A DNA stretch of 28,122 nucleotides, from assembly GCA_041910415.1 (NCBI GenBank), contig JAYRQX010000462.1, positions 1-28,122 on the forward strand. Direction: 5' to 3'. This DNA is from Acetobacteraceae bacterium (GTDB taxonomy: Bacteria > Pseudomonadota > Alphaproteobacteria > Acetobacterales > Acetobacteraceae). Made by a program: the position numbers and the translations under genes. This document shows, piece by piece, positions 2,920 through 20,461 of the stretch. Positions within the stretch are counted from its first letter, which is position 1. Each line of letters begins with the position of its first letter. A model generated the notes under the pieces. That model saw nothing but the letters and a program-made list of their open reading frames with translations. It ran no database searches and was not told the origin of the DNA.

Positions 2920-3528
2920 TCAGCCCAGCAGCGCCTGGCGGAACCGCATGCGCTGCGCGGGCGGATCGAGCAGGCGCTTGACCTGTGGCGGCGGCGTCGG
3001 CCGCACGCGCATCAGGATGAAGGCGGTGCCGTCGGTCTCGCGCAGCATGCGGCGGCCGACCGGGATTTCCTGCGTGTGGGTGATGGTCGTCGTCGTGCGG
3101 ATGCCCGAACCGATGGCGATCTTCTCGATATCGACGCCATAGCCCGTGTGGCTGCGCTGGTAGCCCGTCTCGCCGAAATGGCCGTTGTCGATGCAGATGA
3201 TGCGCAGGTTCTTCGGATCGCGCACGGCGATGGTGGCCAGCGATCCGACATTCATCATCAGCTCCGCATCGCCCGTCAGCACGATGACCGTCCGCTCCGG
3301 CTGCGCGAGCGCGAGGCCGAGGCCCATCATCGCCGCGGCGCCCATGGTGCCCGCCATGGAGAAATGCGTCGGTCCATCGTTCAGCAGCGACGCCGCATCG
3401 CGCGAGGTGCCCGCGAGGCCGCCGATGAACAGGAAATCCCTGGGATCGCCGATCAGGGCCGGCACCGCATCGCAGCGGTCCAGCACATAGTCGGGAAGCT
3501 CGATGGCCCGGGGTGGCAGCGTCTTCAT
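2920..3528 (-). CDS. ThDP-binding (beta) subunit of a sulfopyruvate/phosphonopyruvate decarboxylase-like enzyme (ComE-like)
   Basis: GTMGAA...GLGLALAQPER followed by the ThDP/Mg motif variant GDAELMMNVGSLATIA...IDNGHFGETG. Confidence 0.82.
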   Translation of the reverse strand: MKTLPPRAIELPDYVLDRCDAVPALIGDPRDFLFIGGLAGTSRDAASLLNDGPTHFSMAGTMGAAAMMGLGLALAQPERTVIVLTGDAELMMNVGSLATIAVRDPKNLRIICIDNGHFGETGYQRSHTGYGVDIEKIAIGSGIRTTTTITHTQEIPVGRRMLRETDGTAFILMRVRPTPPPQVKRLLDPPAQRMRFRQALLG

Positions 3529-3549: not shown

Positions 3550-4095
3550 CTAGAATTTCTTCGCGCCGAGAAGCTTCTGCGTCAGCAGGATCGCGATCCC
3601 CTCGCCGCTCTGGAACGCCATCGTCGTGGCCGCCTTTGCGGTGGGCACGACATCCTCCGGCCGGTCCACGCGCAGGCACTGCACGCCCATCGCGTTCAGC
3701 ACGGGCTCGACGGCCTTGCCCATCGGCATCTGCCAGGGATTCCCCTCCCCGAAATCGCCACGCATGCTGACGATAGTGAGCAGCGGAAAGCGGCAGCCGC
3801 TGACGAAGGAGAGGAAGTTGATGCAGTTGCCGACGCCGCTGCTCTGCATCATCACCACGGACCGCGCCCCGCCGAGATCGGCGCCCGCGGCCATGGCGAC
3901 GCCTTCCTCCTCGGTCGTCAGCGCGATGGATTCCACCGCCGGGTCGGCGATCGACTCATCGATCAGGATGGCGTGGCCGGCATCGGGCACGTAGGAGAAT
4001 TGCGTGACCCCGGCTTCGCGCAGCGTCCTGTAGAGGTCGTATTGCCAACCCGTCTTCGCGGCCTTGCCGCCCGCCGCGGCTGCACCTTCGGCCAT
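3550..4095 (-). CDS. Pyrimidine-binding (alpha) subunit of a sulfopyruvate/phosphonopyruvate decarboxylase-like enzyme (ComD-like)
   Basis: YVPDAGH, TTEEEGVA (conserved ThDP-activating Glu), MQSSGVGNCIN and RGDFGEGNPWQ. Strong SD (GAGGAGGA) upstream. 21 nt from the beta subunit. Confidence 0.85.
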   Translation of the reverse strand: MAEGAAAAGGKAAKTGWQYDLYRTLREAGVTQFSYVPDAGHAILIDESIADPAVESIALTTEEEGVAMAAGADLGGARSVVMMQSSGVGNCINFLSFVSGCRFPLLTIVSMRGDFGEGNPWQMPMGKAVEPVLNAMGVQCLRVDRPEDVVPTAKAATTMAFQSGEGIAILLTQKLLGAKKF

Positions 4096-4197: not shown

Positions 4198-5160
4198 TCA
4201 GCCGCCCTCGCGGATGCCGGCCGAACGGATGACCGGCTCCCAGATCCGGCGCGTCTCCAGGATCTCCGCCCGGTAGGCCGCGGGCGAATTATAGGCGGAC
4301 TGCCAGAGCAACTGGCGCATCCGCTCCTGCACCGCGGGAACCTCGAGCGCACGGCCGATCGCGCGGTGCCAGAAGGTGACCCATTCGTCGGGCGTTCCGG
4401 CCGCGAGCACCATGCCGTAGGTCACGTCGCCCACGAAGCCCGGCAGCACGTCGCGCATCAATCCGACATCGGGCAGCACGGCTTCGCGTTCGGCAGACGC
4501 GGACGCGATCGGACGCAGCCGCCCGTCGCGAATGAAGGGCAGCGATTCCGGCAGCAGGCTGAAATAGAGATGCGCATTCCCGGCCATGATGTCCATCAGC
4601 GCCGGCGTGCCGCCGCGATACTGCACGCTCTCCATCGTGATCCGCGCTTCCATCATCATCCGCACGGCCAGCAGATGCGTCATGCCGCCGGCACCGGAAT
4701 TGCCGATGTTGAGGCGGCCCGGATTGGCCCGGGCATAGGCGACGAGCCCGGCAAGGTTCGTGTAGGGGGCTCCGGGCTGGCCCACCAGCACCATCGGCAC
4801 GCGCACCAGGTTGGTCAGCGGCAGCAGCGCACGGTCGGGGTCGATCGGCAGGTTGCTGCCAGGAATGATGGGCGCATTCGCGAGATTGGCGGTGGCGGAC
4901 AGCGCGAGGGTGTGGCCGTCGGGCGGCGCATTGGCCACGGCCTGCATCGCAATGAAGGTGCCGGCGCCGCTCCGGTTCTCGACCACCACCAGGCGCCCGC
5001 CAAGCATGGGCGTGAGGTGCTCCGCGAGCAGCCGGCCCAGGATATCCACCGTGCCGCCGGGTGCGAAGGGAACGATGAGACGGACATTCTGCGTGAGCGT
5101 CTGCGCCTCGGCGCGGAGGCCGAACAGCATGACCAGCACAACGACAATGGCGCGCATCAT
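4198..5160 (-). CDS. Bug/TctC-family substrate-binding protein (Bug-2)
   Basis: Signal peptide, VRLIVPFAPGGTVD, VENRSGAG, PDGHTL, GNSGAGGMTHL and YRGG. Confidence 0.9.
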   Translation of the reverse strand: MMRAIVVVLVMLFGLRAEAQTLTQNVRLIVPFAPGGTVDILGRLLAEHLTPMLGGRLVVVENRSGAGTFIAMQAVANAPPDGHTLALSATANLANAPIIPGSNLPIDPDRALLPLTNLVRVPMVLVGQPGAPYTNLAGLVAYARANPGRLNIGNSGAGGMTHLLAVRMMMEARITMESVQYRGGTPALMDIMAGNAHLYFSLLPESLPFIRDGRLRPIASASAEREAVLPDVGLMRDVLPGFVGDVTYGMVLAAGTPDEWVTFWHRAIGRALEVPAVQERMRQLLWQSAYNSPAAYRAEILETRRIWEPVIRSAGIREGG

Positions 5161-5340: not shown

Positions 5341-6987
5341 TCATGCGGCGGCGCGGTCCGCTGCTGCCGCCGCCGAGGCGAGGATCATGGCGGCGCATTT
5401 CTCGCCGATCATGATGCAGGGCGCGTTGGTGTTGCCGCTGGTCAGCGTCGGCATGATGGAGGCATCGGCGATCCGCAGCCCCGCGATCCCGTGCACGCGG
5501 AGCTCGTGATCCACCACCGCCATCGGATCCGACCCCATCCTGCAGGTGCCCACGGGGTGGAAGGTGGTCTCGGCGTTGTGGCGCACCCACTCCACCAATT
5601 CCGCGTCAGTCTGCAGGTGCCGCCCCGGCGCGATCTCCTCGCCGGTGATCTCCTTGACCGGCGACGTCGCCATCAGTTCCCGCGCCTTGCGGATCGCGGC
5701 GACGACACCGTCGCGGTCATGCTGCGTCGACAGGAAATTGAAGCGGATCGCCGGCGGCGCGGACGCATCGGCGGATGTCACATGCACGGACCCCGTGCTC
5801 TCCGACCGCAGGACATTCACATTCATGGTGATGCCCGGCCGGCGCGACACGCGACGCTCCCGCCCGATCATCTCGTAGAGGAAAGGCAGGACCGAGACGG
5901 TCGCATCCGGCGCCTCCAGCCCCGGCCGCGTGCGGAAATACATGCGCAGGGGAACCGCCGTCGAGGCCAGGAAGCCATCGCCGCTCAGCGCGTAGCGGAT
6001 CGCCTCGCGCGCCAGGCGCCAGCCCCGGCCCTGGTCGCTCCGCGTCGCGAGCGGCTCGGTGATCGCGAACTTGATGCGGGGCGAGTAGTGGTCGCGCAGA
6101 TTCTCGCCCACGCCCTTCAGCGTGTGCATGGGCTCGATCCCGAGCCCGCGCAGCACATCCGGCTGGCCGATGCCGGAGAGTTCCAGCAGCTTGGGCGAGT
6201 TGATGGAACCGCTGGAGACGATGACCTCCCGCGCCGCCCGCGCCGCCCGCCTGTCGGTGCCGACCGCGTAGCGAACGCCGACGCAGCGCCTGCCGTCCAG
6301 TAGGAGCGTCTCGGCCAGGGCTCCCTGCTCGATGACGAGATTCCGCCGCGACCGCGCGGGGTCGAGATAGGCGTAAGCCGTGCTCTGGCGACGGCCCTTC
6401 GCGATCGTCACCTGCGACATCGCTATGCCATCCTGGGACGCGCCGTTCAGGTCGTTGTTGTAGGGAAGGCCGATGCGCGCCGCCGCCTCGATCATCGCCT
6501 CCAGCACCGGCACCTCGCCCCGCGGCGTGTCGGTCACGCGCAGCGGTCCGCTGCGGCCGCGGTACTCGTCGGACCCGCCGTCATAGCTCTCCATGCGCTT
6601 GAACAGCGGCAGCACGTCATCCCAGCTCCAGCCGCGATTGCCGAGCTGCGCCCAGTGGTCGTAGTCCTGCCGCTGGCCGCGGATGTAGACCATGCCGTTG
6701 ATCGCGCTGGACCCGCCGAGCATCCGCCCCCGCGGCACGTCGATCCGCCGCCCGCCCGAGCCTTCGTCGGGTTCGGCGGAGAAGCACCAGTTCACCGCGG
6801 GATTGTCGATCATCTTCGACACGCCGACAGGGATGCGCGACCAGAAATAGCCCGATCCCTCGGTGCCGGCTTCGAGCAGGAGGACGCGATACGCGCCGCT
6901 CTCGCTCAGCCGGCTCGCCACGACCGCGCCGGACGAGCCTGCGCCGACGACGATGTAGTCATAGGTGGCAGGCGCTGCAGACGACAT
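5341..6987 (-). CDS. GMC-family FAD oxidoreductase (choline dehydrogenase-like, substrate unknown)
   Basis: YDYIVVGAGSSG Rossmann motif, RGRMLGGSSAINGMVYIRG, and the catalytic His/Asn pair (FHPVGTCRMG, GNTNAP). The start could instead be ATG 6996. Confidence 0.92.
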   Translation of the reverse strand: MSSAAPATYDYIVVGAGSSGAVVASRLSESGAYRVLLLEAGTEGSGYFWSRIPVGVSKMIDNPAVNWCFSAEPDEGSGGRRIDVPRGRMLGGSSAINGMVYIRGQRQDYDHWAQLGNRGWSWDDVLPLFKRMESYDGGSDEYRGRSGPLRVTDTPRGEVPVLEAMIEAAARIGLPYNNDLNGASQDGIAMSQVTIAKGRRQSTAYAYLDPARSRRNLVIEQGALAETLLLDGRRCVGVRYAVGTDRRAARAAREVIVSSGSINSPKLLELSGIGQPDVLRGLGIEPMHTLKGVGENLRDHYSPRIKFAITEPLATRSDQGRGWRLAREAIRYALSGDGFLASTAVPLRMYFRTRPGLEAPDATVSVLPFLYEMIGRERRVSRRPGITMNVNVLRSESTGSVHVTSADASAPPAIRFNFLSTQHDRDGVVAAIRKARELMATSPVKEITGEEIAPGRHLQTDAELVEWVRHNAETTFHPVGTCRMGSDPMAVVDHELRVHGIAGLRIADASIMPTLTSGNTNAPCIMIGEKCAAMILASAAAAADRAAA

Positions 6988-7066
6988 CAGGACCATCTTC
7001 CCCGGAAGCATTCGCCGCAGAGACTACCAAGCGCGGCGCGGTGCACCAAGGGAGCGCGCCACGGGA

Positions 7067-7807
7067 TCAGCCCGTCGATCCACCCTCATTGGGCTGGAGG
7101 TGTTCATGAAGCCGGGCGCGGGCGGCGTTGTGGACATGCCGCGTGGCGAGAAGGGCGGCCAGTTCCTCGTCCCCCTCGGCAACGGCCCAGAGGATCATGG
7201 CGTGTTCCTGCCAGTCCTGTACGGCGCGACGCCGGCTGTTGCGGCGGAAGACGAGTTCCGTGCGCTCGCGCAGCGGGCGCATCAGCTCCTGCAGCACGCG
7301 GTTCGCGCCGGCATCCACCAGGAGATCGTGGAAGCGGGCGTTGAGCCGTGCGAGTTCCTCCGCCTCCCCTGTCGCGGCGACGGCCTGGCCCTGTTCCAGC
7401 AGGCGGCGGATGCCCGCCAGTGCCTCCGGCTTGCGATGACGGGCCGCGAGGCGCGCGTTCAACCCTTCCAGAACCGCGCGCACTTCAATGAGGTCGCGGG
7501 CGAAATCGGGCGTGAGCGCCGCGACCTGCGCGCCGCGCTTGCCCGGCCCCTGCTCGGACGGCACGGCGAGGCCTTCGGCGACCAGTTGCTTGATCGCCTC
7601 GCGGATCGGCACGCGGGACATGCCGAAATCGGCGGAGAGCCGTTCCTCCACCAGCCGCTCCCCAGGCCGCAGCGCGCCGGAGAGGATGGCGCGGCGCAGC
7701 CTGCCGAGCGCCTGCCGGCTCAATGGCTCGCGTGAGGCCTCGTCACGGCGGTCCGGGTCGGTATCGATGGCTTCGCTGGGGGACATGGGCTCCGTACGAC
7801 CGGACAT
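7067..7807 (-). CDS. GntR-family (FadR/FCD-type) transcriptional regulator
   Basis: wHTH LRRAILSGALRPGERLVEERLSADFGMSRVPIREAI plus an FCD-type C-terminus (NARFH...EH..I...HV). The start could instead be ATG 7786. Confidence 0.93.
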   Translation of the reverse strand: MSGRTEPMSPSEAIDTDPDRRDEASREPLSRQALGRLRRAILSGALRPGERLVEERLSADFGMSRVPIREAIKQLVAEGLAVPSEQGPGKRGAQVAALTPDFARDLIEVRAVLEGLNARLAARHRKPEALAGIRRLLEQGQAVAATGEAEELARLNARFHDLLVDAGANRVLQELMRPLRERTELVFRRNSRRRAVQDWQEHAMILWAVAEGDEELAALLATRHVHNAARARLHEHLQPNEGGSTG

Positions 7808-7849
7808 GGCATGTGGAAGCAAGGACGCCAAGGGTCTTCGCTCGGCTTA

Positions 7850-7998: not shown

Positions 7999-8010
7999 TT
8001 CGTATACGAA
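7999..8010. promoter_or_regulatory. Candidate GntR operator, copy 2 (perfect palindrome TTCGTATACGAA)
   Basis: Perfect 12-bp AT-rich palindrome with a GTATAC core in a GC-rich window, 9 nt downstream of a TTGACC -35-like hexamer (7984-7989), upstream of the transporter gene. Confidence 0.68.
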
Positions 8011-8102: not shown

Positions 8103-9665
8103 ATGGCTGTCCAGATCGGAGCGGTCCACTACGTCTATCTCGTGGGTGTCGTCGCGATCGTCCTGTCGATGATCCTGCGCGCGAATGTCGTCGTGCCCGC
8201 GATCCTCGCGACCTTCGCCGTCGCCGCGACCTTCTCGGGCAGCCTGATCGGGGCCACGATCTCGGTCTTCAACGGCTCGCTCGTCGCCGCCAAGGAGCTT
8301 TTCAACATCTTCCTGGTCATCGCGCTGATGACCTCGCTGCTCAACGCGCTGAAGGCGCTGGGCGCGGACCAGAAGATGGTGCGGCCCTTCCGGCGCATCA
8401 TGACCAACGGGCAGATCGCCTTCGCGGTCGTCGTCGCCATCACCTATGTCATCTCGCTGTTCTTCTGGCCGACGCCGGCGGTGCCGCTGGTGGCCGCGAC
8501 GCTGCTGCCGGCCGCGATCGCGGCGGGGCTGCCGGCCATCGGCGCCGCGGCGGCGATCGCCATCGCCGGCCAGGGCATGGCGCTGTCCTCGGACTACGTG
8601 ATCCGCGTGGCCCCGGGCATTTCCGCGCGCGCGGCCGGCGTCGCCGATCAGGCGGGCGTCATCGCGGACAAGGCGCTGGTGCTGTCGCTGGTGACCGGCA
8701 TCATCGCGCTGGGGCTTGCCTACCTCTCCATCCGCAAGCGGATCGTGGCGCCGAGCCAGGCGCATCTGCATCGCTGGATGGCAGGCGCCACGCTGCAGGA
8801 AAGCCTGGCCGAGCAGCGCGAGCATGTCGCGCCCAACATCGGCTCCTTCGACAAATCGGTGATCGCGCTGCGCGCCGCCGAGGGCGAACCCGAGCAGGAC
8901 CCGGCGCTGGACCGCCCCGCCATCACGCCGAGCGGCGCGGTGACAACGGGGCCCGCTTTGCCCTGGTCCGGCATCATGGCGGTGCTGACCCCGGTCGTGT
9001 TTGGCTGCCTCATCCTGTTCATGCTGGCACCGAAGGTCGTTCCGGGCTGGCACGTGCTGCGCGGCGGCGACGCGGCGGCGCTGGTGGGCGGCACGGCGGC
9101 GCTGATGATGCTGGTCGCGACCTTCGCCGCCGATGGCCGCAAGGCCATGCACACCGCGGCCGACCATGTGGTGGACGGCTTGGTCTTCTCCTTCCGTGCC
9201 ATGGGCACGGTGCTGCCGATCGCGGGCTTCTTCTTCCTGGGCGCGGGAGAGTTCTCCGCCTCCATCCTGGGCTTGCCGTCCGGCACGCAGGGCCCTGACC
9301 TTCTGTTCGAGGTGATCCGCGCCTCCGACCACCTGATCCCGCACAACCCCGCCATCGTCGCCTTCGCGGTGATGATCGTCGGCATGATCACGGGCATCGA
9401 CGGGTCGGGCTTCGCCGGCCTGCCGCTGACCGGCGCGCTGGCCGGCGGCCTCGGCCCCGTCGTGAACATGGACCCGACGACGCTCGCCGCCGTCGGCCAG
9501 ATGGGCGCGGTCTGGACCGGCGGCGGCACGCTGATCGCGTGGTCCTCGCTGATCGCCGTCGCCGGATTCACCCGCGTGCCGGTGCTGGACCTGGTGCGCC
9601 TGCTCTTCGGCCCGGTCTGCGCCGGGCTGATCGTCTCCACCCTGCTGGCCGTCGTGCTCTGGTGA
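8103..9665 (+). CDS. Multi-pass membrane protein, probable secondary transporter (ion-transporter-superfamily-like, family unassigned)
   Basis: 520 aa with more than ten hydrophobic segments in two halves separated by a hydrophilic loop. Gly-rich hairpin-like motifs (AGQGMALSSD, GIDGSGFAGLPL, WTGGGTL). SD GGGGAG upstream. Confidence 0.75.
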   Translation: MAVQIGAVHYVYLVGVVAIVLSMILRANVVVPAILATFAVAATFSGSLIGATISVFNGSLVAAKELFNIFLVIALMTSLLNALKALGADQKMVRPFRRIMTNGQIAFAVVVAITYVISLFFWPTPAVPLVAATLLPAAIAAGLPAIGAAAAIAIAGQGMALSSDYVIRVAPGISARAAGVADQAGVIADKALVLSLVTGIIALGLAYLSIRKRIVAPSQAHLHRWMAGATLQESLAEQREHVAPNIGSFDKSVIALRAAEGEPEQDPALDRPAITPSGAVTTGPALPWSGIMAVLTPVVFGCLILFMLAPKVVPGWHVLRGGDAAALVGGTAALMMLVATFAADGRKAMHTAADHVVDGLVFSFRAMGTVLPIAGFFFLGAGEFSASILGLPSGTQGPDLLFEVIRASDHLIPHNPAIVAFAVMIVGMITGIDGSGFAGLPLTGALAGGLGPVVNMDPTTLAAVGQMGAVWTGGGTLIAWSSLIAVAGFTRVPVLDLVRLLFGPVCAGLIVSTLLAVVLW

Positions 9666-9714: not shown

Positions 9715-10446
9715 ATGACCAAGCTCATGAACCGCGACGAATTCCGCACCGCGCTGGAACAGGCCATCGCCGGCAAGAGCGCCAACAAGTCGCCCTTCAG
9801 CATCGGCTGGGCGAGCGGCAAGCTGACCCGCGCACACCTCTCGCGCTGGGCCGAGAACCACTTCCACTATGTCGGCCCCTTCGCCGAATACCTCGCCTAT
9901 GTCTATGCGCGCATGCCCGCGCAGTACCAGGAAGCCAAGGACTTCCTGCTGCAGAACATGTACGAGGAGGAGATCGGCGGCGATCGCCACACCGACCTGC
10001 TGATCCGCTTCGCCGAGGCCTGCGGCACGACACGCGAGCGGGTGATGGACCCCGAGAACATGTCGCCCACGACGCGCGCGCTGCAGAGCTGGTGCTACTG
10101 CGTCGCCATGCGCGAAGACCCGATCGTCGCCGTCGCCGGCCTGGTCGTCGGGTTGGAGTCCCAGGTGCCCAGCATCTACCGCCGCCAGACGCCGACGCTG
10201 CGCGAGAAATACGGCTTCACGGACGAGGAGGTCGAGTTCTTCGACCTGCACATCGTCTCCGACGAGATCCATGGCGAGCGCGGCTACCAGATCGTGCTGG
10301 AACACGCGGACACGGTCGAGTTGCAGCAGCGCTGCCTGAAGATCTGCGAAGTGGGCGCGCAGATGCGCCTGCTCTACACGACGGCGCTCTACAACGACTA
10401 CGTGGCGAGCGAGATTTCCCTGCGTGAACTCGGCATGGCCGCCTAA
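9715..10446 (+). CDS. Heme-oxygenase-like diiron (HDO) protein, CADD/PqqC/TenA structural family
   Basis: Complete CADD-type ligand spacing: E85-x6-H92 (NMYEEEIGGDRH), E148 (LESQVP) and H179-x3-D183-x2-H186 (HIVSDEIH). Strong SD AAGGAGG at 9703-9709. Confidence 0.88.
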   Translation: MTKLMNRDEFRTALEQAIAGKSANKSPFSIGWASGKLTRAHLSRWAENHFHYVGPFAEYLAYVYARMPAQYQEAKDFLLQNMYEEEIGGDRHTDLLIRFAEACGTTRERVMDPENMSPTTRALQSWCYCVAMREDPIVAVAGLVVGLESQVPSIYRRQTPTLREKYGFTDEEVEFFDLHIVSDEIHGERGYQIVLEHADTVELQQRCLKICEVGAQMRLLYTTALYNDYVASEISLRELGMAA

Positions 10447-10455
10447 TTTGTGAGG

Positions 10456-10479
10456 GCGGGGCCCTCGATGGGGCCCCGC
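10456..10479 (+). terminator. Intra-operon hairpin after the HDO gene
   Basis: Perfect 9-bp stem GCGGGGCCC-tcgatg-GGGCCCCGC starting 9 nt after the stop codon, followed only by a weak pyrimidine run (atgtctctctg). Confidence 0.55.
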
Positions 10480-10504
10480 ATGTCTCTCTGGAAACGCACA
10501 AACA

Positions 10505-10828
10505 ATGCCGCTGGTGACCTTCCGCAAGGGCAATGTGACGGTCGAGGAGGAGGTGGCGGACAACACCAACCTGGTGGTCCGCGCCGGCATTCGGAAGTTT
10601 CCCCACCCGCATCTGCGCTACGGCTGCGGCATGGGGAAATGCGCCAAATGCGCCTGCCAGGTGCAGGCGGGCGCCGAGCACCTGCCGCCGCCCAACTGGA
10701 AGGAGAAGAAGCAGCTCGGGGCGTATCTGGAGCAGGGCTACCGCCTCTGCTGCCAGCTCTGGCTGCATCACGACATCACGCTGGAACAGCCCCTGCAGGA
10801 GCTGCCGGGCGCCGGCGGCCAGAGCTGA
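10505..10828 (+). CDS. [2Fe-2S] ferredoxin (Fd-1)
   Basis: C-x4-C-x2-C (CGMGKCAKC) with the distal RLCCQ; 107 aa. Confidence 0.9.
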   Translation: MPLVTFRKGNVTVEEEVADNTNLVVRAGIRKFPHPHLRYGCGMGKCAKCACQVQAGAEHLPPPNWKEKKQLGAYLEQGYRLCCQLWLHHDITLEQPLQELPGAGGQS

Positions 10829-10841
10829 AGGAACCCCCACG

Positions 10842-11156
10842 ATGTACGTCATCCTGACCAGCAAGCCCGGGCAGTTCCGCACCGAGCTGGTGCCCGGCCT
10901 GCTGCCGGTCGAAGCCTATGACTACCTGTTCTACGGGAAGAAGAAGGCGCAGTTCGTCATCGCCGAGATCGCGGGCGAGACGAAGGTGCGCGTCATCGAC
11001 GAGGTCTTCCCACCCGTGCTGAACCTGGTGCCCTCGAAGTTCCTGGAGAAATTCGACAGCGTCACCGCCGCGCGGCGGGAGCTTGAACACCTCACCACCT
11101 TCGGCAACATGCAGGTCGAACTGCAACCCATCCCGCTGCCGCAGCCCGTTTCATGA
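10842..11156 (+). CDS. Small protein of unknown function (104 aa, no Cys)
   Basis: SD AAGGA upstream, host-like GC3-rich codons, protein-like composition, and an ATGA overlap with Fd-2. It fills the gap between the two ferredoxins. Confidence 0.85.
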   Translation: MYVILTSKPGQFRTELVPGLLPVEAYDYLFYGKKKAQFVIAEIAGETKVRVIDEVFPPVLNLVPSKFLEKFDSVTAARRELEHLTTFGNMQVELQPIPLPQPVS

Positions 11157-11497
11157 TCACGATCACCTTCGTCACCAATGACGGCAAGCAGGTGCAGGCG
11201 GCCGAGAACAGCAACCTGCTGCGCGTGTCGCTGCGCGAGAAGGGCGGCATTCCCTTCAAGTGCGGCGCGGGCCTCTGCGGCACCTGCCGCTGTCACTTCG
11301 ACGCGGGGCTGGAGCACGCGGATGCCGTGAAAACCAAGGAGCGCAAGCACCTGACCGACGCCGACATCGCCGCCGGCTACCGCATGGCCTGCCAGACCTT
11401 CGTGAACGGCGACGTCGCGATTTCCTGGGACCCCAGGCAGCCCATCAAGGCCGCGCCCGTGCGGCCGGCTGCCACTGTCAAAGAGACGAGCGAATGA
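11153..11497 (+). CDS. [2Fe-2S] ferredoxin (Fd-2)
   Basis: CGAGLCGTC with the distal RMACQ. ATGA overlaps at both ends. Confidence 0.92.
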   Translation: MITITFVTNDGKQVQAAENSNLLRVSLREKGGIPFKCGAGLCGTCRCHFDAGLEHADAVKTKERKHLTDADIAAGYRMACQTFVNGDVAISWDPRQPIKAAPVRPAATVKETSE

Positions 11498-11973
11498 AGA
11501 GCTTTTTCCGACTGGAAGCGCATGAGGCTCGGACCATGGTGGCCGCGGCGCTGGCAGAGGCAGCGCGAATAAAAGTGCCGGAGACCGCCTGCGTGGTGGA
11601 TGAGGGCGGCTATCCGATCTGCCTGGAACGCATGGACGGCGCGCGCGTGACCGGCCCGCAGATCGCCTGGAACAAGGCCTTCACCGCGGCCGGCCACAAG
11701 CGATCGACGCATCTCTTCAACACGCCGCCCAACGGCCCCGCGCTGCCGGGCAACGAGGCCTTCGGCATCCAGTGGAGCTTCGACGGCAGGTTCGCGATTT
11801 TTGTCGGCGGCTTCCCGATCGTGGTGGATGGCGAGGTCGTGGGCGGCATTGGCCTGTCCGGCGGCAATGGCGAGCAGGACATCGCCTGTGGCGTGGCCGG
11901 CCTGCAGGCGCTGGCCGACCTGCTGAAGCCGCAGGGCCGGACCGTGCTGGTGCAGGCCGACATCAAGAAGTAG
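11494..11973 (+). CDS. GlcG/HbpS-family (heme-binding-type) protein
   Basis: True start is the ATG at 11494 (159 aa). Motifs CVVDEGG..ERMDGA, IAWNKAFTAA and GGFPIVVDGEVVGGIGLSGG..EQD. Confidence 0.88.
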   Translation: MKSFFRLEAHEARTMVAAALAEAARIKVPETACVVDEGGYPICLERMDGARVTGPQIAWNKAFTAAGHKRSTHLFNTPPNGPALPGNEAFGIQWSFDGRFAIFVGGFPIVVDGEVVGGIGLSGGNGEQDIACGVAGLQALADLLKPQGRTVLVQADIKK

Positions 11974-11978
11974 CGCGC

Positions 11979-12980
11979 ATGGCCTTTCGCATCCTCGTAT
12001 CAGGCGCGGCGGCCGAGTTCACGGCCGAGGCGGGCGAGACGCTGCTGGAAGCCGCGGACCGCGCAGGTGTCGCGCTGCTGCGCGACTGCCGGACGGGCGG
12101 CTGCGGCACCTGCCGCATCCGGCTGCTCGAAGGCAGCGTGGCGTATGAGGAAATGCCCTTCGCGCTGACCGAGGAGGAGGCGGCGGAAGGCTTCGCGCTG
12201 GCGTGCCAGGCGCGCGCGACCTGTGACCTCGTGATCGAACCCGCGCGCAGCGGCCCCGACCTGCCCCCATCCGCCATGCACCAGGCGGTGGTCATCGGCA
12301 CGGAACGGCTGGCGCATGACGTGACCGCGCTGCGCCTGTCGCTGCCTGAGCCGCTGGACTATTTGCCCGGGCAATATGCGAACCTGCTGCTGCCGGATGG
12401 ATCGTCGCGCAGCTTCTCGATGGCGACGGCGCCGGGCGGCGACCTCACCTTCCACATCCGCCACATCGAAGGCGGCCGCTTCACGTGCGGCATCCTGCCC
12501 AGGCTGGCGCCAGGCGCGACGCTGTCGCTGGAAGCGCCGCTCGGCGCCTTCGTCCATCGCCCCGCGGATTTCCGGCCGCTGCTGTTCCTGGCGACGGGCA
12601 CCGGCATCGCACCGATCCGCGCCATGCTGGAATCGCTGCTCGACGACGGCGACTGCCCGCCGGTCACGCTCTACTGGGGTGGGCGCAGGCTGGCGGATCT
12701 CTATCTGCGCGACGAGATCGCCTCCTGGACGGACCGCCTGACCGAGTTCCGCTTCGTCCCCGTGCTGTCGCGTGCCGGGGATGGCTGGGGCGGCGCGCGC
12801 GGCCACGTCCATCACATCTGCCTGGCCGAGATGCCCGACATGCCTGATTGCGCAGCCTATCTCTGCGGCTCGCCCGCCATGATCCGCGATGCGCGTGCCG
12901 CGCTGCTGGCCAAGGGCGCGAACCCCGCCTTCGTCTACACGGAAGCCTTCACCGCCACGCCGCCCGTCACTGCGGCCTGA
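11979..12980 (+). CDS. [2Fe-2S]/FAD/NAD(P)H oxidoreductase (oxygenase reductase-type)
   Basis: True start is the ATG at 11979 (333 aa). N-terminal CRTGGCGTC...LACQ, then PGQY, RSFS (FAD), ATGTGIAP (NAD(P)) and YLCGSPAMI. Confidence 0.92.
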   Translation: MAFRILVSGAAAEFTAEAGETLLEAADRAGVALLRDCRTGGCGTCRIRLLEGSVAYEEMPFALTEEEAAEGFALACQARATCDLVIEPARSGPDLPPSAMHQAVVIGTERLAHDVTALRLSLPEPLDYLPGQYANLLLPDGSSRSFSMATAPGGDLTFHIRHIEGGRFTCGILPRLAPGATLSLEAPLGAFVHRPADFRPLLFLATGTGIAPIRAMLESLLDDGDCPPVTLYWGGRRLADLYLRDEIASWTDRLTEFRFVPVLSRAGDGWGGARGHVHHICLAEMPDMPDCAAYLCGSPAMIRDARAALLAKGANPAFVYTEAFTATPPVTAA

Positions 12981-13959
12981 TCCCGGCCCGCGCGATCAGC
13001 TCCGCCCATTTCGCGAGGTCGCGCGCCATCACCGCGCGGAAGGCGGCTGCGCCGAGATCGGGAAGATCGAAGCCGGCGCCAATGAGCCGCGTACGTGTCT
13101 CCGGCACGCGCAGCGCCGCCAGGATGGAGGACTCCGCGCGGTCTGCGATGGCCGACGGCAGCCGTGCGGGACCGAGCACCCCATACCAGGAGAAGGCCTC
13201 GAACCCCGGATAGCCAAGCTCGGCGATGGTCGGCACGTCAGGCAGGTCGCGCCAGCGCGATGGGCCGGTCGTCGCCAGCGCGCGCAGCCTGCCGTCGCGG
13301 ATGGCCGCGACGGCCAGGATCGGATTCTGGAACACCGCATCGACCTGCCCGCCCAGCACCGCCGCCTGCGCGGGGGCCGTGCCGGCAAAGGGCACATGCG
13401 TCAGCTCGACGCCCGCCGAGACGGCAAGCAATTCGCCCGAAAGATGGCTGGCCGCGCCGACGCCGCCCGATCCGTAGCTGACGGGCCTGGTGCGCGCGAG
13501 TGCGATGAGCTCGGCCAGCGTCGTCGCGGGCACCGAGGGATGCACGACAAGGATGTGCGGATGCTGGGCAACCAGCGCGATCGGCGTGAAGTCGCGCAGT
13601 GGATCGAAGGGCAGCCGCTGCACGAGCGCCGGCGCGGTGACCAGCGTGTTCGCCGCGACGACAAGCGTCAGCCCGTCAGGCGGCTGCCGCGCCACGTAGT
13701 CCGAACCGACATTGCCGCCGGCCCCTGGCCTGTTCTCGACCACGACCGGCTGGCGCCAGCTTCGCCCCAGCTGTTCGGCAAGCGCGCGCGCAATGACGTC
13801 CGAAGGCCCCCCTGGCGCGAAGGGAGCGACGAGGCGCACGGGCCGGTCGGGCCAGTTCGCTTGCGCCGCCGTCCGTGATGCGGCGGCGACGGAGGCCACG
13901 AGCCCCGCGAATGCGCGGCGCGTCATGGCGCCGGACAAGCCGCATCCAGAGCGTGCCAT
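12967..13959 (-). CDS. Bug/TctC-family substrate-binding protein (Bug-3)
   Basis: TRRAF signal, WPDRPVRLVAPFAPGGPSD, ENRPGAGG, YGSGGVGAASHL and WYGVLGP. Start is 13959 (SD-like AAGGGA) or 13926. Its 3' end overlaps the reductase 3' end by 14 nt. Confidence 0.9.
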   Translation of the reverse strand: MARSGCGLSGAMTRRAFAGLVASVAAASRTAAQANWPDRPVRLVAPFAPGGPSDVIARALAEQLGRSWRQPVVVENRPGAGGNVGSDYVARQPPDGLTLVVAANTLVTAPALVQRLPFDPLRDFTPIALVAQHPHILVVHPSVPATTLAELIALARTRPVSYGSGGVGAASHLSGELLAVSAGVELTHVPFAGTAPAQAAVLGGQVDAVFQNPILAVAAIRDGRLRALATTGPSRWRDLPDVPTIAELGYPGFEAFSWYGVLGPARLPSAIADRAESSILAALRVPETRTRLIGAGFDLPDLGAAAFRAVMARDLAKWAELIARAGIRPQ

Positions 13960-14031: not shown

Positions 14032-14997
14032 ATGTTGTTGCTGCGCCGCACACTGACCGCGAGCGGGCTTGCGCTCGCCATCCCGCCCCGATCGCGCGCC
14101 CAGGCCTATCCGGCGCGGCCGGTGCGCGTCGTCGTCGCCTTTCCGCCAGGCGGACCCACGGACACGATCGCGCGCGTGCTCGCCGCACCGCTGGAGCAGG
14201 CCTGGGGGCAGCCGGTGGTCATCGAGAACCGCGGCGGCGCGGGCGGCAATATCGGCACCGCCCAGGTCGCGCGGGCCGCGCCGGATGGCTACACGCTGCT
14301 GCTCTGCGCCAGCTCGCACGCGATCAACCCGAGCATCTTCCGCAGCATGCCCTACCACCCCGTGCGCGACTTCGCGCCGGTGGCGCTGCTGACCTCCTCG
14401 CCCTTCGTGCTGGTCGTGCATCCCTCGATGCCCGTGCGAACCTTCGCGGAGTTCCTCGCTTATGTCCGCGCGCGCCCGGGGCAGGTGAACTACGCCTCGG
14501 CCAGCAACGGCAGCGGCAACCACCTGGCGATGGAGATGCTGAAATCGGCGGCCGGGCTCGACATGGTGCATGTCCCCTATGCGGGTGCGGCGCCGGCGAC
14601 GACGGATCTGCTGGCGGGCCAGGTCTCCGTCATGTTCAACAACATGGTCTCCGCCGCGCCGCATATCCCGACGGGGCGGATGCGCGCGCTCGCCACATCC
14701 GGCCTCACGCGTCCGCCCTCACTGCCGGATGTGCCGACGGTCGCCGAGACGATCCCGGGCTTCGATGCGACCACCTGGTATGGGGTGCTGGCACCCGCCA
14801 GCACGCCGGCACCGTTGGTGACCGAGCTCAACGCACGCTTCGTCGCGGCGCTCGCCAGCCCCGCGGTGCGGGAGAGGCTGGTCGCCCTCGGCCTCGACGC
14901 CACGCCGAGCACGCCGGATGCCTTCACCCGCTTCATCGAGACCGAGATGGTGAAGTGGGCCGCAGCGGCGCGCGCCGCGAACGTGCAGATGGATTAG
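14032..14997 (+). CDS. Bug/TctC-family substrate-binding protein (Bug-4)
   Basis: YPARPVRVVVAFPPGGPTD, ENRGGAGG, PDGYTLL, YASASNGSGNHL and WYGVLAPA. Confidence 0.92.
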   Translation: MLLLRRTLTASGLALAIPPRSRAQAYPARPVRVVVAFPPGGPTDTIARVLAAPLEQAWGQPVVIENRGGAGGNIGTAQVARAAPDGYTLLLCASSHAINPSIFRSMPYHPVRDFAPVALLTSSPFVLVVHPSMPVRTFAEFLAYVRARPGQVNYASASNGSGNHLAMEMLKSAAGLDMVHVPYAGAAPATTDLLAGQVSVMFNNMVSAAPHIPTGRMRALATSGLTRPPSLPDVPTVAETIPGFDATTWYGVLAPASTPAPLVTELNARFVAALASPAVRERLVALGLDATPSTPDAFTRFIETEMVKWAAAARAANVQMD

Positions 14998-18861: not shown

Positions 18862-19625
18862 GCGTGCCGGATATCCAGGAAGCGGCGGTAGAGCGGCACG
18901 CCGACGACCAGCCAGACCAGGATCAGCATGGTGGAGACCGCCGAGACCGACGGGCGGGAGGAGTATTCCAGCGAGGTGAAGATGCGGATCGGCAGCGTCT
19001 GCATGCCCGGCCCCGCGAGGAACAGGGAGACCACCAGCTCGTCGAAGGAGAGGATGAAGGCGAAGACCGCGCCGGCGACAACCCCGGGACGGATCAGGGG
19101 CAGCGTCACCTGGAAGAAGGTGCGCGTGGCGCTGGCGCCCAGATTGGACGCCGCCTCCTCCACCGCCGGATCGAACTCCGACAGGCTCGCCATGACCATG
19201 CGGATGACGAAGGGCGTCGTCAGTACGGCATGCGCCGCGATCATGCCGTGCAGCGTCCCCGCCAGCCCGACCTGGTTGTAGAAGATCAGCAGCGCGAGCC
19301 CGAGCACGATGGCCGGGAAGAAGATGGGCGACAGGAACAACGCCGCCGCGGCCGCCTTGCCCGGGAAGCGCCCGCGCGCGAGACCGAGCGCGGCCGAGGT
19401 GCCGAGGATCGTGGCAATGAGCGTGGAGGAGCCGGCCAGGACGGCGCTGACGCGCATCGCCTCCATGTATTCGCGGCTGCCGAGGACGTCGGCGAACCAG
19501 CGCAGGGTGACGCCGCGCGGCGGGAAGACCGGATAGGCCGTGGTCGTGAAGGAGGTCGCGACGACGACAAGCACCGGCGCCAGCAGGTAGAGCGCGATCA
19601 GCGCATTCACCGCCCAAAGGATCAT
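18858..19625 (-). CDS. ABC transporter permease, PotC-like
   Basis: Hydrophobic, with EAA loop EEAASNLGA and FILSFDE. Confidence 0.93.
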
Positions 19626-20461
19626 GCGCCCCGCTCCTGCCGCGCGAGGCGCATGGCGATCAGGAACATGGCGACGACGGTCGCCAGCATGACGAAGGCG
19701 ATCGCGCCGCCGAAGGGCCAGTTCAGCAGGCTCATCCCCTGCTGATAGATCAGCGTGGCCATGACCGGCACGCGCGGTCCGCCGATCAGGCTCGGTGTCA
19801 CGAAGGCGCTGACGGCGAGCGTGAACACCAGCACGGATCCGGAGAGGATGCCCGGCACCGTGAGCGGCAGCGTCACCTGCCAGAAGATCCGCGCGCGGCC
19901 CGCGCCCAGATTGCGCGCGGCCTCATAGAGTCGCGGGTCGATATTAAGCAAAGCGGCGTCCAGCGCGAGCACCATGAAGGGCAGCAGCACCTGCGTCAGC
20001 GCGATGATGATTCCCGTCATGTTGTACATGAACCGGATGGGATCCTCGGTGATGCCGAGATCCATCAGCGTGCGGTTGATGAAGCCGTTGTTGGACAGCA
20101 GGATCATCCAGCCGAAGGTGCGGACGACGGCACTCGTCAGCAACGGCAGCAGCACGACGAAGTAGAGCAGCGCGCGCGCAAAGCCGCGCAGCCGCGACAA
20201 TCCGTAGGCGAGCGGAAAGCCGAGCACGAGGCTCCACAACGTCACCTCGAGCCCGAGCCGCAGCGTGCGCCACAGGATCGCCAGGTGATAATCGTCGGTC
20301 AGGAAGGCGGTGTAGTGCGCAAGCGTCCAGCTGTCCTGGATGCCGCGCCCGGCCTCGTAGCCACGGAAGCTCAGAACGAAGAGCGTGATCAGCGGCCCGA
20401 GCATGAAGAGCGCGAGCCAGACGGCGTTCGGCAGCAGCAGCCTGGCGCCCGTGCCACGCAT
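19622..20461 (-). CDS. ABC transporter permease, PotB-like
   Basis: PLLTSAVVRTFGW, EAA loop YEAARNLGA and PSLIGG. ATGA overlap with the next permease. Confidence 0.93.
   Translation of the reverse strand: MRGTGARLLLPNAVWLALFMLGPLITLFVLSFRGYEAGRGIQDSWTLAHYTAFLTDDYHLAILWRTLRLGLEVTLWSLVLGFPLAYGLSRLRGFARALLYFVVLLPLLTSAVVRTFGWMILLSNNGFINRTLMDLGITEDPIRFMYNMTGIIIALTQVLLPFMVLALDAALLNIDPRLYEAARNLGAGRARIFWQVTLPLTVPGILSGSVLVFTLAVSAFVTPSLIGGPRVPVMATLIYQQGMSLLNWPFGGAIAFVMLATVVAMFLIAMRLARQERGA

Follow-up and report, generated by a model that had tools for sequence, protein, structure and literature searches.

A probable compact dip operon in an Acetobacteraceae bacterium and the place of its oxygenase component, DipD, among heme-oxygenase-like dimetal oxygenases

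What is the task of a protein that has the complete metal-ligand set of the self-sacrificing 4-aminobenzoate (pABA) synthase CADD but lacks its sacrificial residues? This question was raised by an open reading frame (ORF) at positions 9715 to 10446 of a 28,122-nucleotide stretch of DNA from an Acetobacteraceae bacterium (assembly GCA_041910415.1, contig JAYRQX010000462.1), hereafter called the window. Members of its protein family go under the public names 'TenA family transcriptional regulator', 'pyrroloquinoline-quinone synthase', and 'iron-containing redox enzyme family protein'. A first-pass annotation of the window, made from the letters alone, had foreseen automatic labelling as TenA or PqqC; the public names confirm this, and the protein fails the curated cutoffs of both. 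Judged by its sequence, the ORF is very probably the ortholog of DipD, the oxygenase component of a multicomponent dipicolinate (pyridine-2,6-dicarboxylate) 3-monooxygenase, and we conclude that the operon around it is a compact dip cluster, dipR / dipB-D-J-K-L-F-G. The enzyme and the cluster have already been published and are not new, and the function is known from the ortholog. The points of interest here are the placement of DipD in the superfamily of heme-oxygenase-like dimetal oxygenases (HDOs), a lead on the partner protein DipK, and the association of dip clusters with TauE permease and SorAB sulfite dehydrogenase genes, together with the absence of several downstream genes from this genome.

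Correspondence with the published dip cluster

In Alcaligenes faecalis JQ135, dipD was described as the 'monooxygenase component' essential for converting dipicolinic acid (DPA) to 3-hydroxy-DPA (PMC11472048), and the hydroxyl oxygen of the product comes from 18O2 (summarised in PMC11472048). The same paper reported that the regulator DipR binds sites with the core GWATAC, a motif required for binding, and that R63, R67, H196, and H218 are key residues of DipR. It described dipA/dipB and dipH/dipJ as divergent pairs, called the roles of the other dip genes 'unclear', and named Belnapia and Achromobacter insuavis as hosts of dip clusters (PMC11472048).

Inspection of related genomes revealed exact copies of both printed DNase footprint sequences of DipR in two genomes, G176 and G197, of the family that holds Paenalcaligenes, and the locus from G176 (L099) was used as the dip reference. 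Its footprints lie inside a 260-bp gap between a TauE gene and the gene for a 520-aa carrier, and each of the intergenic regions described in PMC11472048 holds a GTATAC. The gene order is GntR and TauE (both leftward) / carrier and GGT-like / HDO, aldehyde dehydrogenase (ALDH), HbpS-like, and reductase / ferredoxin, 104-aa protein, ferredoxin, and OCD-family enzyme. Since this order and the footprints reproduce the published units one for one, the HDO gene is dipD. TauE is then encoded by dipA, the HbpS-like protein by dipF, the reductase by dipG, and the ferredoxin, 104-aa protein, and ferredoxin by dipJ, dipK, and dipL; the GGT-like gene is dipC, the ALDH gene is dipE, and the OCD-family gene is dipM. 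No gene of L099 could be matched to dipH of the published cluster. The G176 regulator, numbered from its own start, shows L27, F28, R63, R67, V89, M100, H196, H218, and A222 as in PMC11472048.

Alignment of the window protein with the product of the dipD-position gene of L099 gave 84% identity and 92% similarity over all 243 residues with no gaps, and the gene is single-copy in both the window genome and the reference genome. In a tree, window DipD fell with the reference DipD and the proteins of Belnapia and Achromobacter insuavis into one clade with a long stem and a support of 100/100. The family as a whole forms one 50%-identity cluster among 1.84 billion representatives; its members are 84-95% identical across Alpha-, Beta-, and Gammaproteobacteria, and 120 of the 243 positions are invariant. 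The neighbours correspond as well. In the window dipR is divergent and is followed by the compact operon dipB-D-J-K-L-F-G, with identities to the L099 genes at the same dip position of 55% for DipB, 69% for DipJ, 79% for DipF, and 48% for DipG. Residues R73, R77, H210, and H232 of window DipR occupy the columns of DipR R63, R67, H196, and H218, so that four of four are kept. GTATAC, the core of the DipR operator, occurs a single time in the 28-kb window (0.33 expected), and this occurrence lies within the dipR/dipB intergenic region.

Several points weigh against the assignment. It is made by orthology to one genetically studied strain, and PMC11472048 contains no in vitro reconstitution. Genes were matched to their dip letters by the order in which they stand, by the footprints, and by the sizes of the intergenic regions rather than by accession numbers. 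Window DipR is just 44% identical to DipR of the Alcaligenes-type genome G176, and the second copy of the operator is imperfect. Neither the window operon nor the 82%-complete genome contains orthologs of dipC (GGT-like), dipE (ALDH), dipM (OCD family), or dipA (TauE), the best ALDH match being 41% identical; for this reason the fate of 3-hydroxy-DPA in the source organism is unexplained. The association of dip loci with TauE (dipA) and SorAB, described below, is likewise unexplained, because dipicolinate holds no sulfur.

Some of these points would also suit an enzyme of the same architecture whose native substrate here is another pyridine or aromatic dicarboxylate, for example an isomeric pyridine dicarboxylate. 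The operon of the window type without dipA and the downstream dipC, dipE, and dipM, the low identity of DipR, and the patchy occurrence of the cluster, which within the same bacterial family was found in 2 of the 24 genera searched, all lean that way. We consider it unlikely, since the 84% identity to DipD and the 120 positions invariant across classes leave little room for a changed pocket, H196 and H218 of the DipR effector domain and the operator core are conserved, and clusters of the Belnapia type have been counted as dip clusters (PMC11472048). With DipD as the preferred assignment, we infer that the source organism converts DPA to 3-hydroxydipicolinate.

Dimetal site, fold, and the sacrificial positions of CADD

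The dipD ORF runs on the + strand from an ATG at 9715 to a stop codon at 10446, encodes 243 amino acids, and has a G+C fraction at third codon positions (GC3) of 0.90 in a window of 69% G+C. A Shine-Dalgarno sequence or ribosome-binding site, GAAGGAGGA, ends 4 nt upstream of the ATG. The protein matched Pfam family PF14518 (Haem_oxygenas_2) with an E value of 9e-37 and the TENA/THI-4/PQQC family more weakly. It lay below every cutoff of the NCBI curated models, scoring 95.4 bits with TIGR04305 (CADD; cutoff 200), 52.1 bits with TIGR02111 (PqqC; cutoff 240), and 16 bits with TIGR04306 (TenA thiaminase II; cutoff 130). The best match among PDB sequences was a solved pABA synthase (E 1e-18), and no solved TenA was present among the PDB sequence matches at E up to 1. 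The structure prediction suggested in the first-pass annotation yielded a model (AF2, pLDDT 96.8) with the HDO fold. Its best Foldseek match was CtCADD (8va9; TM 0.82/0.93, rmsd 1.8 Å), followed by PqqC, UndA, HrmI, FlcD, and BesC.

Residues were mapped by HMMER alignment to CtCADD (1rcw, 8va9) and to a second solved pABA synthase (9pj4), with positions counted along the alignment. DipD residues E85, H92, E148, H179, D183, and H186 fell on CADD E81, H88, E142, H174, D178, and H181, whereas CADD Tyr27, Lys152, and Tyr170 were replaced by S29, Q158, and F175. A MAFFT alignment of 37 rows was then examined, made up of 14 rows of the CADD clade and 23 others, the relatives having been drawn from a search of 1.84 billion representatives. 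The six ligand columns were invariant or nearly so, and Tyr at column 29 together with Lys at column 158 occurred in all 14 CADD-clade rows and as a pair in none of the 23 other rows. Six CADD-clade rows bearing Tyr and Lys, when scanned with TIGR04305, scored 241-281 bits and passed the cutoff, and four non-CADD relatives scanned alongside scored 95-137 bits, below it. Within the DipD family, S29, Q158, and all six ligands were invariant in 120 of 120 cluster representatives.

These results uphold what had been noticed by eye in the first-pass annotation, namely that all six ligands are present, the two alignments and the family agreeing on each. They also uphold the replacement of three CADD residues, with one reservation. 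Phe occupies column 175 in 8 of the 14 CADD-clade rows, and the Nitrosomonas pABA synthase NePabS has Phe at the place equivalent to Tyr170 (review PMC13108848). Because true pABA synthases also carry Phe there, F175 is not diagnostic. Many DipD orthologs have Lys at 157, adjoining the Lys152 column; this residue is not conserved, as window DipD has Arg there.

The fold match to CtCADD, the pABA synthase as best PDB sequence match, and the ligand set shared with CADD could be taken to mean that the ORF encodes a self-sacrificing pABA synthase of the CADD/PabS type, or else a PqqC or a TenA. To such an identity we give next to no weight. The DipD family has invariant Ser and Gln in place of Tyr27 and Lys152, the scores with all three curated models fall short of the cutoffs while six Tyr/Lys-bearing rows exceed that of CADD, and the gene belongs to a catabolic operon that includes a redox chain and has no folate, pyrroloquinoline quinone (PQQ), or thiamin genes nearby. 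DipD is instead a heme-oxygenase-like helical bundle with an intact dimetal site, which by alignment and model is predicted to bind two metals and to activate O2.

Accessory proteins, the operator, and related loci

The coordinates of the dip genes, of the operator sites, and of neighbouring genes are given in Table 1. Both ferredoxins keep their cysteines. Of 74 distinct DipJ homologs, all have C41, C46, and C49, and 73 have C83; C37, C42, C45, C47, and C80 of DipL are present in every one of 67 distinct homologs. The fifth invariant Cys of DipL, C47, lies two residues past the third cluster ligand. The nearest NCBIfam models of the reductase DipG were BenC, AntC, and MmoC, all with scores below their own cutoffs. 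In DipF, C33, H68, and H73 are invariant in 69 distinct homologs, and from this conservation they could be ligands for heme or another cofactor. The abstract of Mu et al. 2022, which was not used as evidence here, is said to describe dipF as heme-binding, dipG as a ferredoxin reductase, dipJ, dipK, and dipL as ferredoxins, and DipD as like no known oxygenase. DipB had no match in Pfam or among PDB sequences; its protein-language features resemble those of the acid carriers DcuC, GntP, and CitMHS, a likeness that is a lead only.

Table 1. Positions, strands, and descriptions of features in the window
Feature	Position	Strand	Description
dipR	7067-7831	-	GntR/FadR-family repressor, Pfam GntR and FCD; divergent from dipB
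dipB	8103-9665	+	520-aa membrane carrier, probable dipicolinate importer
dipD	9715-10446	+	predicted diiron oxygenase component of HDO fold; Pfam, HMMER alignment, MAFFT alignment, synteny, AF2 fold
dipJ	10505-10828	+	plant-type [2Fe-2S] ferredoxin, Pfam Fer2
dipK	10842-11156	+	Cys-free 104-aa partner protein, family-less
dipL	11153-11497	+	second plant-type [2Fe-2S] ferredoxin, Pfam Fer2 (E 3e-12); 4-nt overlap with dipK
dipF	11494-11973	+	HbpS-like/GlcG (DUF336) accessory protein, Pfam HbpS-like (E 2e-33); 4-nt overlap with dipL
dipG	11979-12980	+	BenC/MmoC-type Fer2-FAD-NAD reductase; Pfam Fer2, FAD_binding_6, NAD_binding_1
TTCGTATACGAA	7999-8010		perfect 12-bp palindrome, holds the DipR core GTATAC (8002-8007)
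TTTGCATACGAA	7850-7861		imperfect operator palindrome, 19 nt away from the start of dipR; putative role
GMC oxidoreductase	5341-7011	-	choline-dehydrogenase-like; downstream of dipR, same strand
split TPP enzyme (ComDE-like)	3550-4095 and 2920-3528	-	nearest sulfopyruvate decarboxylase alpha/beta, below both cutoffs
TctC receptors	1945-2904, 4198-5160, 12967-13959, 14032-14997	- (4198-5160)	tripartite tricarboxylate transporter receptors, four in 28 kb

The perfect palindrome TTCGTATACGAA lies 96 nt before dipB, directly after a TTGACC hexamer. The core of the imperfect copy, GCATAC in TTTGCATACGAA, is one base off the published GWATAC motif. No promoter-like site emerged when the region between dipR and dipB was scanned with the sigma-70 consensus.

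DipK stands apart from the other products of the operon. It is Cys-free, with only a partly conserved His, and it is not a ferredoxin of the usual kind because it lacks Cys. It had no match in Pfam, NCBIfam, or PDB sequences. An AF2 model (pLDDT 93.2) consists of a mostly beta domain and one helix, for which no structural relatives were found by Foldseek against the PDB (best E 0.5) or by VIA-align against 48,161 chains (best Z 3.6); a search of the AlphaFold DB with the model returned solely DipK's own unnamed family. An effector of the MmoB/DmpM kind was considered for DipK and rejected, as none of 19 homologs matched the Pfam family even at E 10 and no PDB fold match reached Z 5.

Prediction of a DipK-DipD complex gave an ipSAE of 0.80, against 0.02 for the best control. 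In calibration, 58 of 80 solved complexes and 2 of 110 mismatched pairs attained that mark; the counts apply approximately here, where our own alignments were used. On DipD the predicted interface comprises residues 177-196, on the outer face of the H179/D183/H186 helix, and residues 152-163 around Q158, with a contribution from residues 24 and 33 on either side of S29. On DipK, residues 59-64 and 84-91 make the predicted contacts. Of the 28 interface residues of DipD, 18 never vary in the family; for the other 215 residues the number is 102. In HDOs this core helix is the part that is labile, and cofactor assembly is linked to it (review PMC13108848). Given this lability and the predicted position of DipK on the helix, a clamp that steadies the helix for repeated turnover is a reasonable reading. 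That DipK may clamp the ligand-bearing helix of DipD in this way is offered as a lead, not as a finding.

A wider reading joins these parts, and we hold it tentatively, at somewhat less than even chances. Hydroxylation of an aromatic ring would be shown for an HDO for the first time with DipD, which would also be the first HDO to work as a true multicomponent system, with a reductase, ferredoxins, and a small docking protein. DipK, automatically named a ferredoxin, would be a subunit that has no Cys and whose fold has no relative among solved structures. By clamping the labile, ligand-bearing helix 177-196 together with the segment near Gln158, a surface on which the sacrificial Lys is found in CADD, it would stabilise or gate the dimetal site for repeated turnover.

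The proposed working of the system is as follows. DPA would be imported by DipB and would release the repressor DipR from the GTATAC operator, so that dipB-D-J-K-L-F-G is transcribed. NAD(P)H would reduce DipG through its FAD and [2Fe-2S] centre, and electrons would probably pass from DipG to DipJ and/or DipL and on to the dimetal site of DipD, presumably a pair of iron atoms, held by three His and three carboxylates on the heme-oxygenase-like helical bundle. The reduced site would activate O2 and place one oxygen atom onto C3 of the pyridine ring to give 3-hydroxydipicolinate, while DipK, on the outside of the ligand-bearing helix, may serve as a structural or coupling subunit. DipD would need no sacrificial Tyr or Lys, because its substrate is external and its electrons are resupplied, and the replacement of these residues by Ser and Gln fits such turnover. 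The first-pass annotation had predicted a turnover enzyme for an external substrate, and the orthology to DipD, along with an operon that holds an importer, two ferredoxins, and a reductase, speaks for that prediction.

Conservation of the gene set was examined in a synteny sample of 59 related loci, each of at least 17 kb, from named genomes, with Belnapia and Achromobacter insuavis both included. The genes for the HDO, both ferredoxins, the 104-aa protein, and the HbpS-like protein were together in 59 of 59. The regulator was found in 54 loci, ALDH in 49, the membrane protein (dipB) in 48, the reductase in 40, and the TauE permease in 37. A SorAB sulfite dehydrogenase is encoded directly beside dipD in 17 of 26 Achromobacter loci, as at L004:7798-9355 (SorA 697 bits against a cutoff of 600; SorB 98 against 93), and among the loci compared it is confined to Achromobacter.

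These neighbours, and the ComDE-like split TPP decarboxylase upstream in the window, once led us to an organosulfonate monooxygenase, an HDO that hydroxylates a sulfonate-bearing carbon to release sulfite and an aldehyde; the TauE/SafE permease in 37 loci, SorAB in the 17 Achromobacter loci, and ALDH in 49 loci would each find a place in such a pathway. This candidate was dropped once the dip link had been verified, and we now regard it as very improbable. The TauE gene is dipA and belongs to a DPA-induced, DipR-controlled regulon, dipD is required for DPA hydroxylation (PMC11472048), SorAB is limited to one genus, ComDE-like genes occur in none of the 59 loci, and no sulfonate link for the HDO family was found in the literature searched.

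Further variation was seen among the related loci. Aminobacter aminovorans (L001) has two DipD paralogs 9 kb apart, at 10001-10759 and 19215-19943, one of them followed by dipJ-K-L, ALDH, TauE, and OCD and the other by dipF and dipG. After the gene for the nearest full-length relative outside the DipD family, P0128 (50% identity; L090:37-1221), come those for a Rieske ferredoxin and an HbpS-like protein, so that the pairing of HDO, iron-sulfur protein, and HbpS-like protein extends to a sister clade with another kind of ferredoxin. In Cupriavidus and Azospirillum loci (as at L016:15268-18196) the cluster includes genes for an amidase (PRK06170 type, 688 bits) and for an MFS transporter, and other lineages have the GGT-like dipC instead; this alternation is a hint at the cleavage of an amide bond in a step after ring opening. 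The 59 related dip loci contain neither the GMC oxidoreductase, nor the TctC receptor at 4198-5160, nor the split TPP enzyme of the window. Elsewhere the window carries ordinary genes of metabolism and ABC transport, which encode an SDR, a DAO-type oxidoreductase, a class-III aminotransferase, and an ABC system of the peptide type.

Comparison with known systems

The dip cluster of JQ135 has in common with the window DipD (84%), the genes dipB, dipJ, dipK, dipL, dipF, dipG, and dipR, the GTATAC operator core, and the key DipR residues. It differs in organisation, as the window holds a compact single operon without dipA, dipC, dipE, dipH, and dipM, whereas JQ135 has six transcription units. PMC11472048 does not place DipD in the HDO superfamily, and a 2026 review of HDOs (PMC13108848) counts about a dozen characterised members, every one biosynthetic or self-sacrificing and none catabolic. 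Literature searches on HDOs with ferredoxins in catabolism, sulfonate HDOs, PF14518, and 'iron-containing redox enzyme' with TauE found nothing on the DipD family. The dip system thus seems to be unknown to the HDO field, and the assignment made here links two literatures without mutual citation, the dip papers, in which DipD is a novel monooxygenase, and the HDO reviews. DipD is the entry enzyme for the bacterial breakdown of dipicolinic acid from spores. For annotation, more than a thousand protein clusters that go under the misleading labels 'TenA family transcriptional regulator' and 'PQQ synthase' are thereby given a function.

Among HDOs, MboA of mangotoxin biosynthesis needs a dedicated NAD(P)H-flavin-[2Fe-2S] reductase, MboB, for turnover (PMC13185094), and DipD would be alike in this; MboAB has been called possibly the first dedicated HDO-redox pair (PMC13185094). 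MboA carries out the desaturation of a peptide side chain in a biosynthetic pathway with a single partner protein, whereas the reaction of DipD is a catabolic hydroxylation of an aromatic ring, and its gene travels with those for a reductase, two ferredoxins, DipK, and DipF. In toluene-4-monooxygenase and soluble methane monooxygenase, an NADH reductase with FAD and [2Fe-2S] passes electrons through a ferredoxin to a diiron hydroxylase that is joined by a small docking protein without cofactor. These ferritin-like multicomponent diiron monooxygenases share the proposed logic of the dip system and aromatic hydroxylation, but the hydroxylase folds are unrelated, a ferritin-like four-helix bundle in the one and a heme-oxygenase-like bundle in the other. 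PqqC and TenA, which are metal-free, share the fold superfamily with DipD (TM ~0.7-0.85) and differ in operon context.

Closest in structure are CtCADD (CT610; 1rcw, 8va9) and NePabS, which have in common with DipD the seven-helix heme-oxygenase-like fold and the set of three His and three carboxylates at ~25-27% identity. By fold DipD is nearest to CADD/PabS, yet it is not a member, as neither of the two defining features that were tested was found in it. In place of the sacrificial Tyr27 and Lys152 it has Ser29 and Gln158, and with an external substrate and dedicated electron donors it would perform many turnovers. The surface of DipD around the two replaced residues is part of the predicted interface with DipK. 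A CADD-like scaffold that lacks the sacrificial Tyr and Lys and is supplied with an electron-transfer chain and a putative clamp protein offers a natural comparison between single-turnover and catalytic HDOs.

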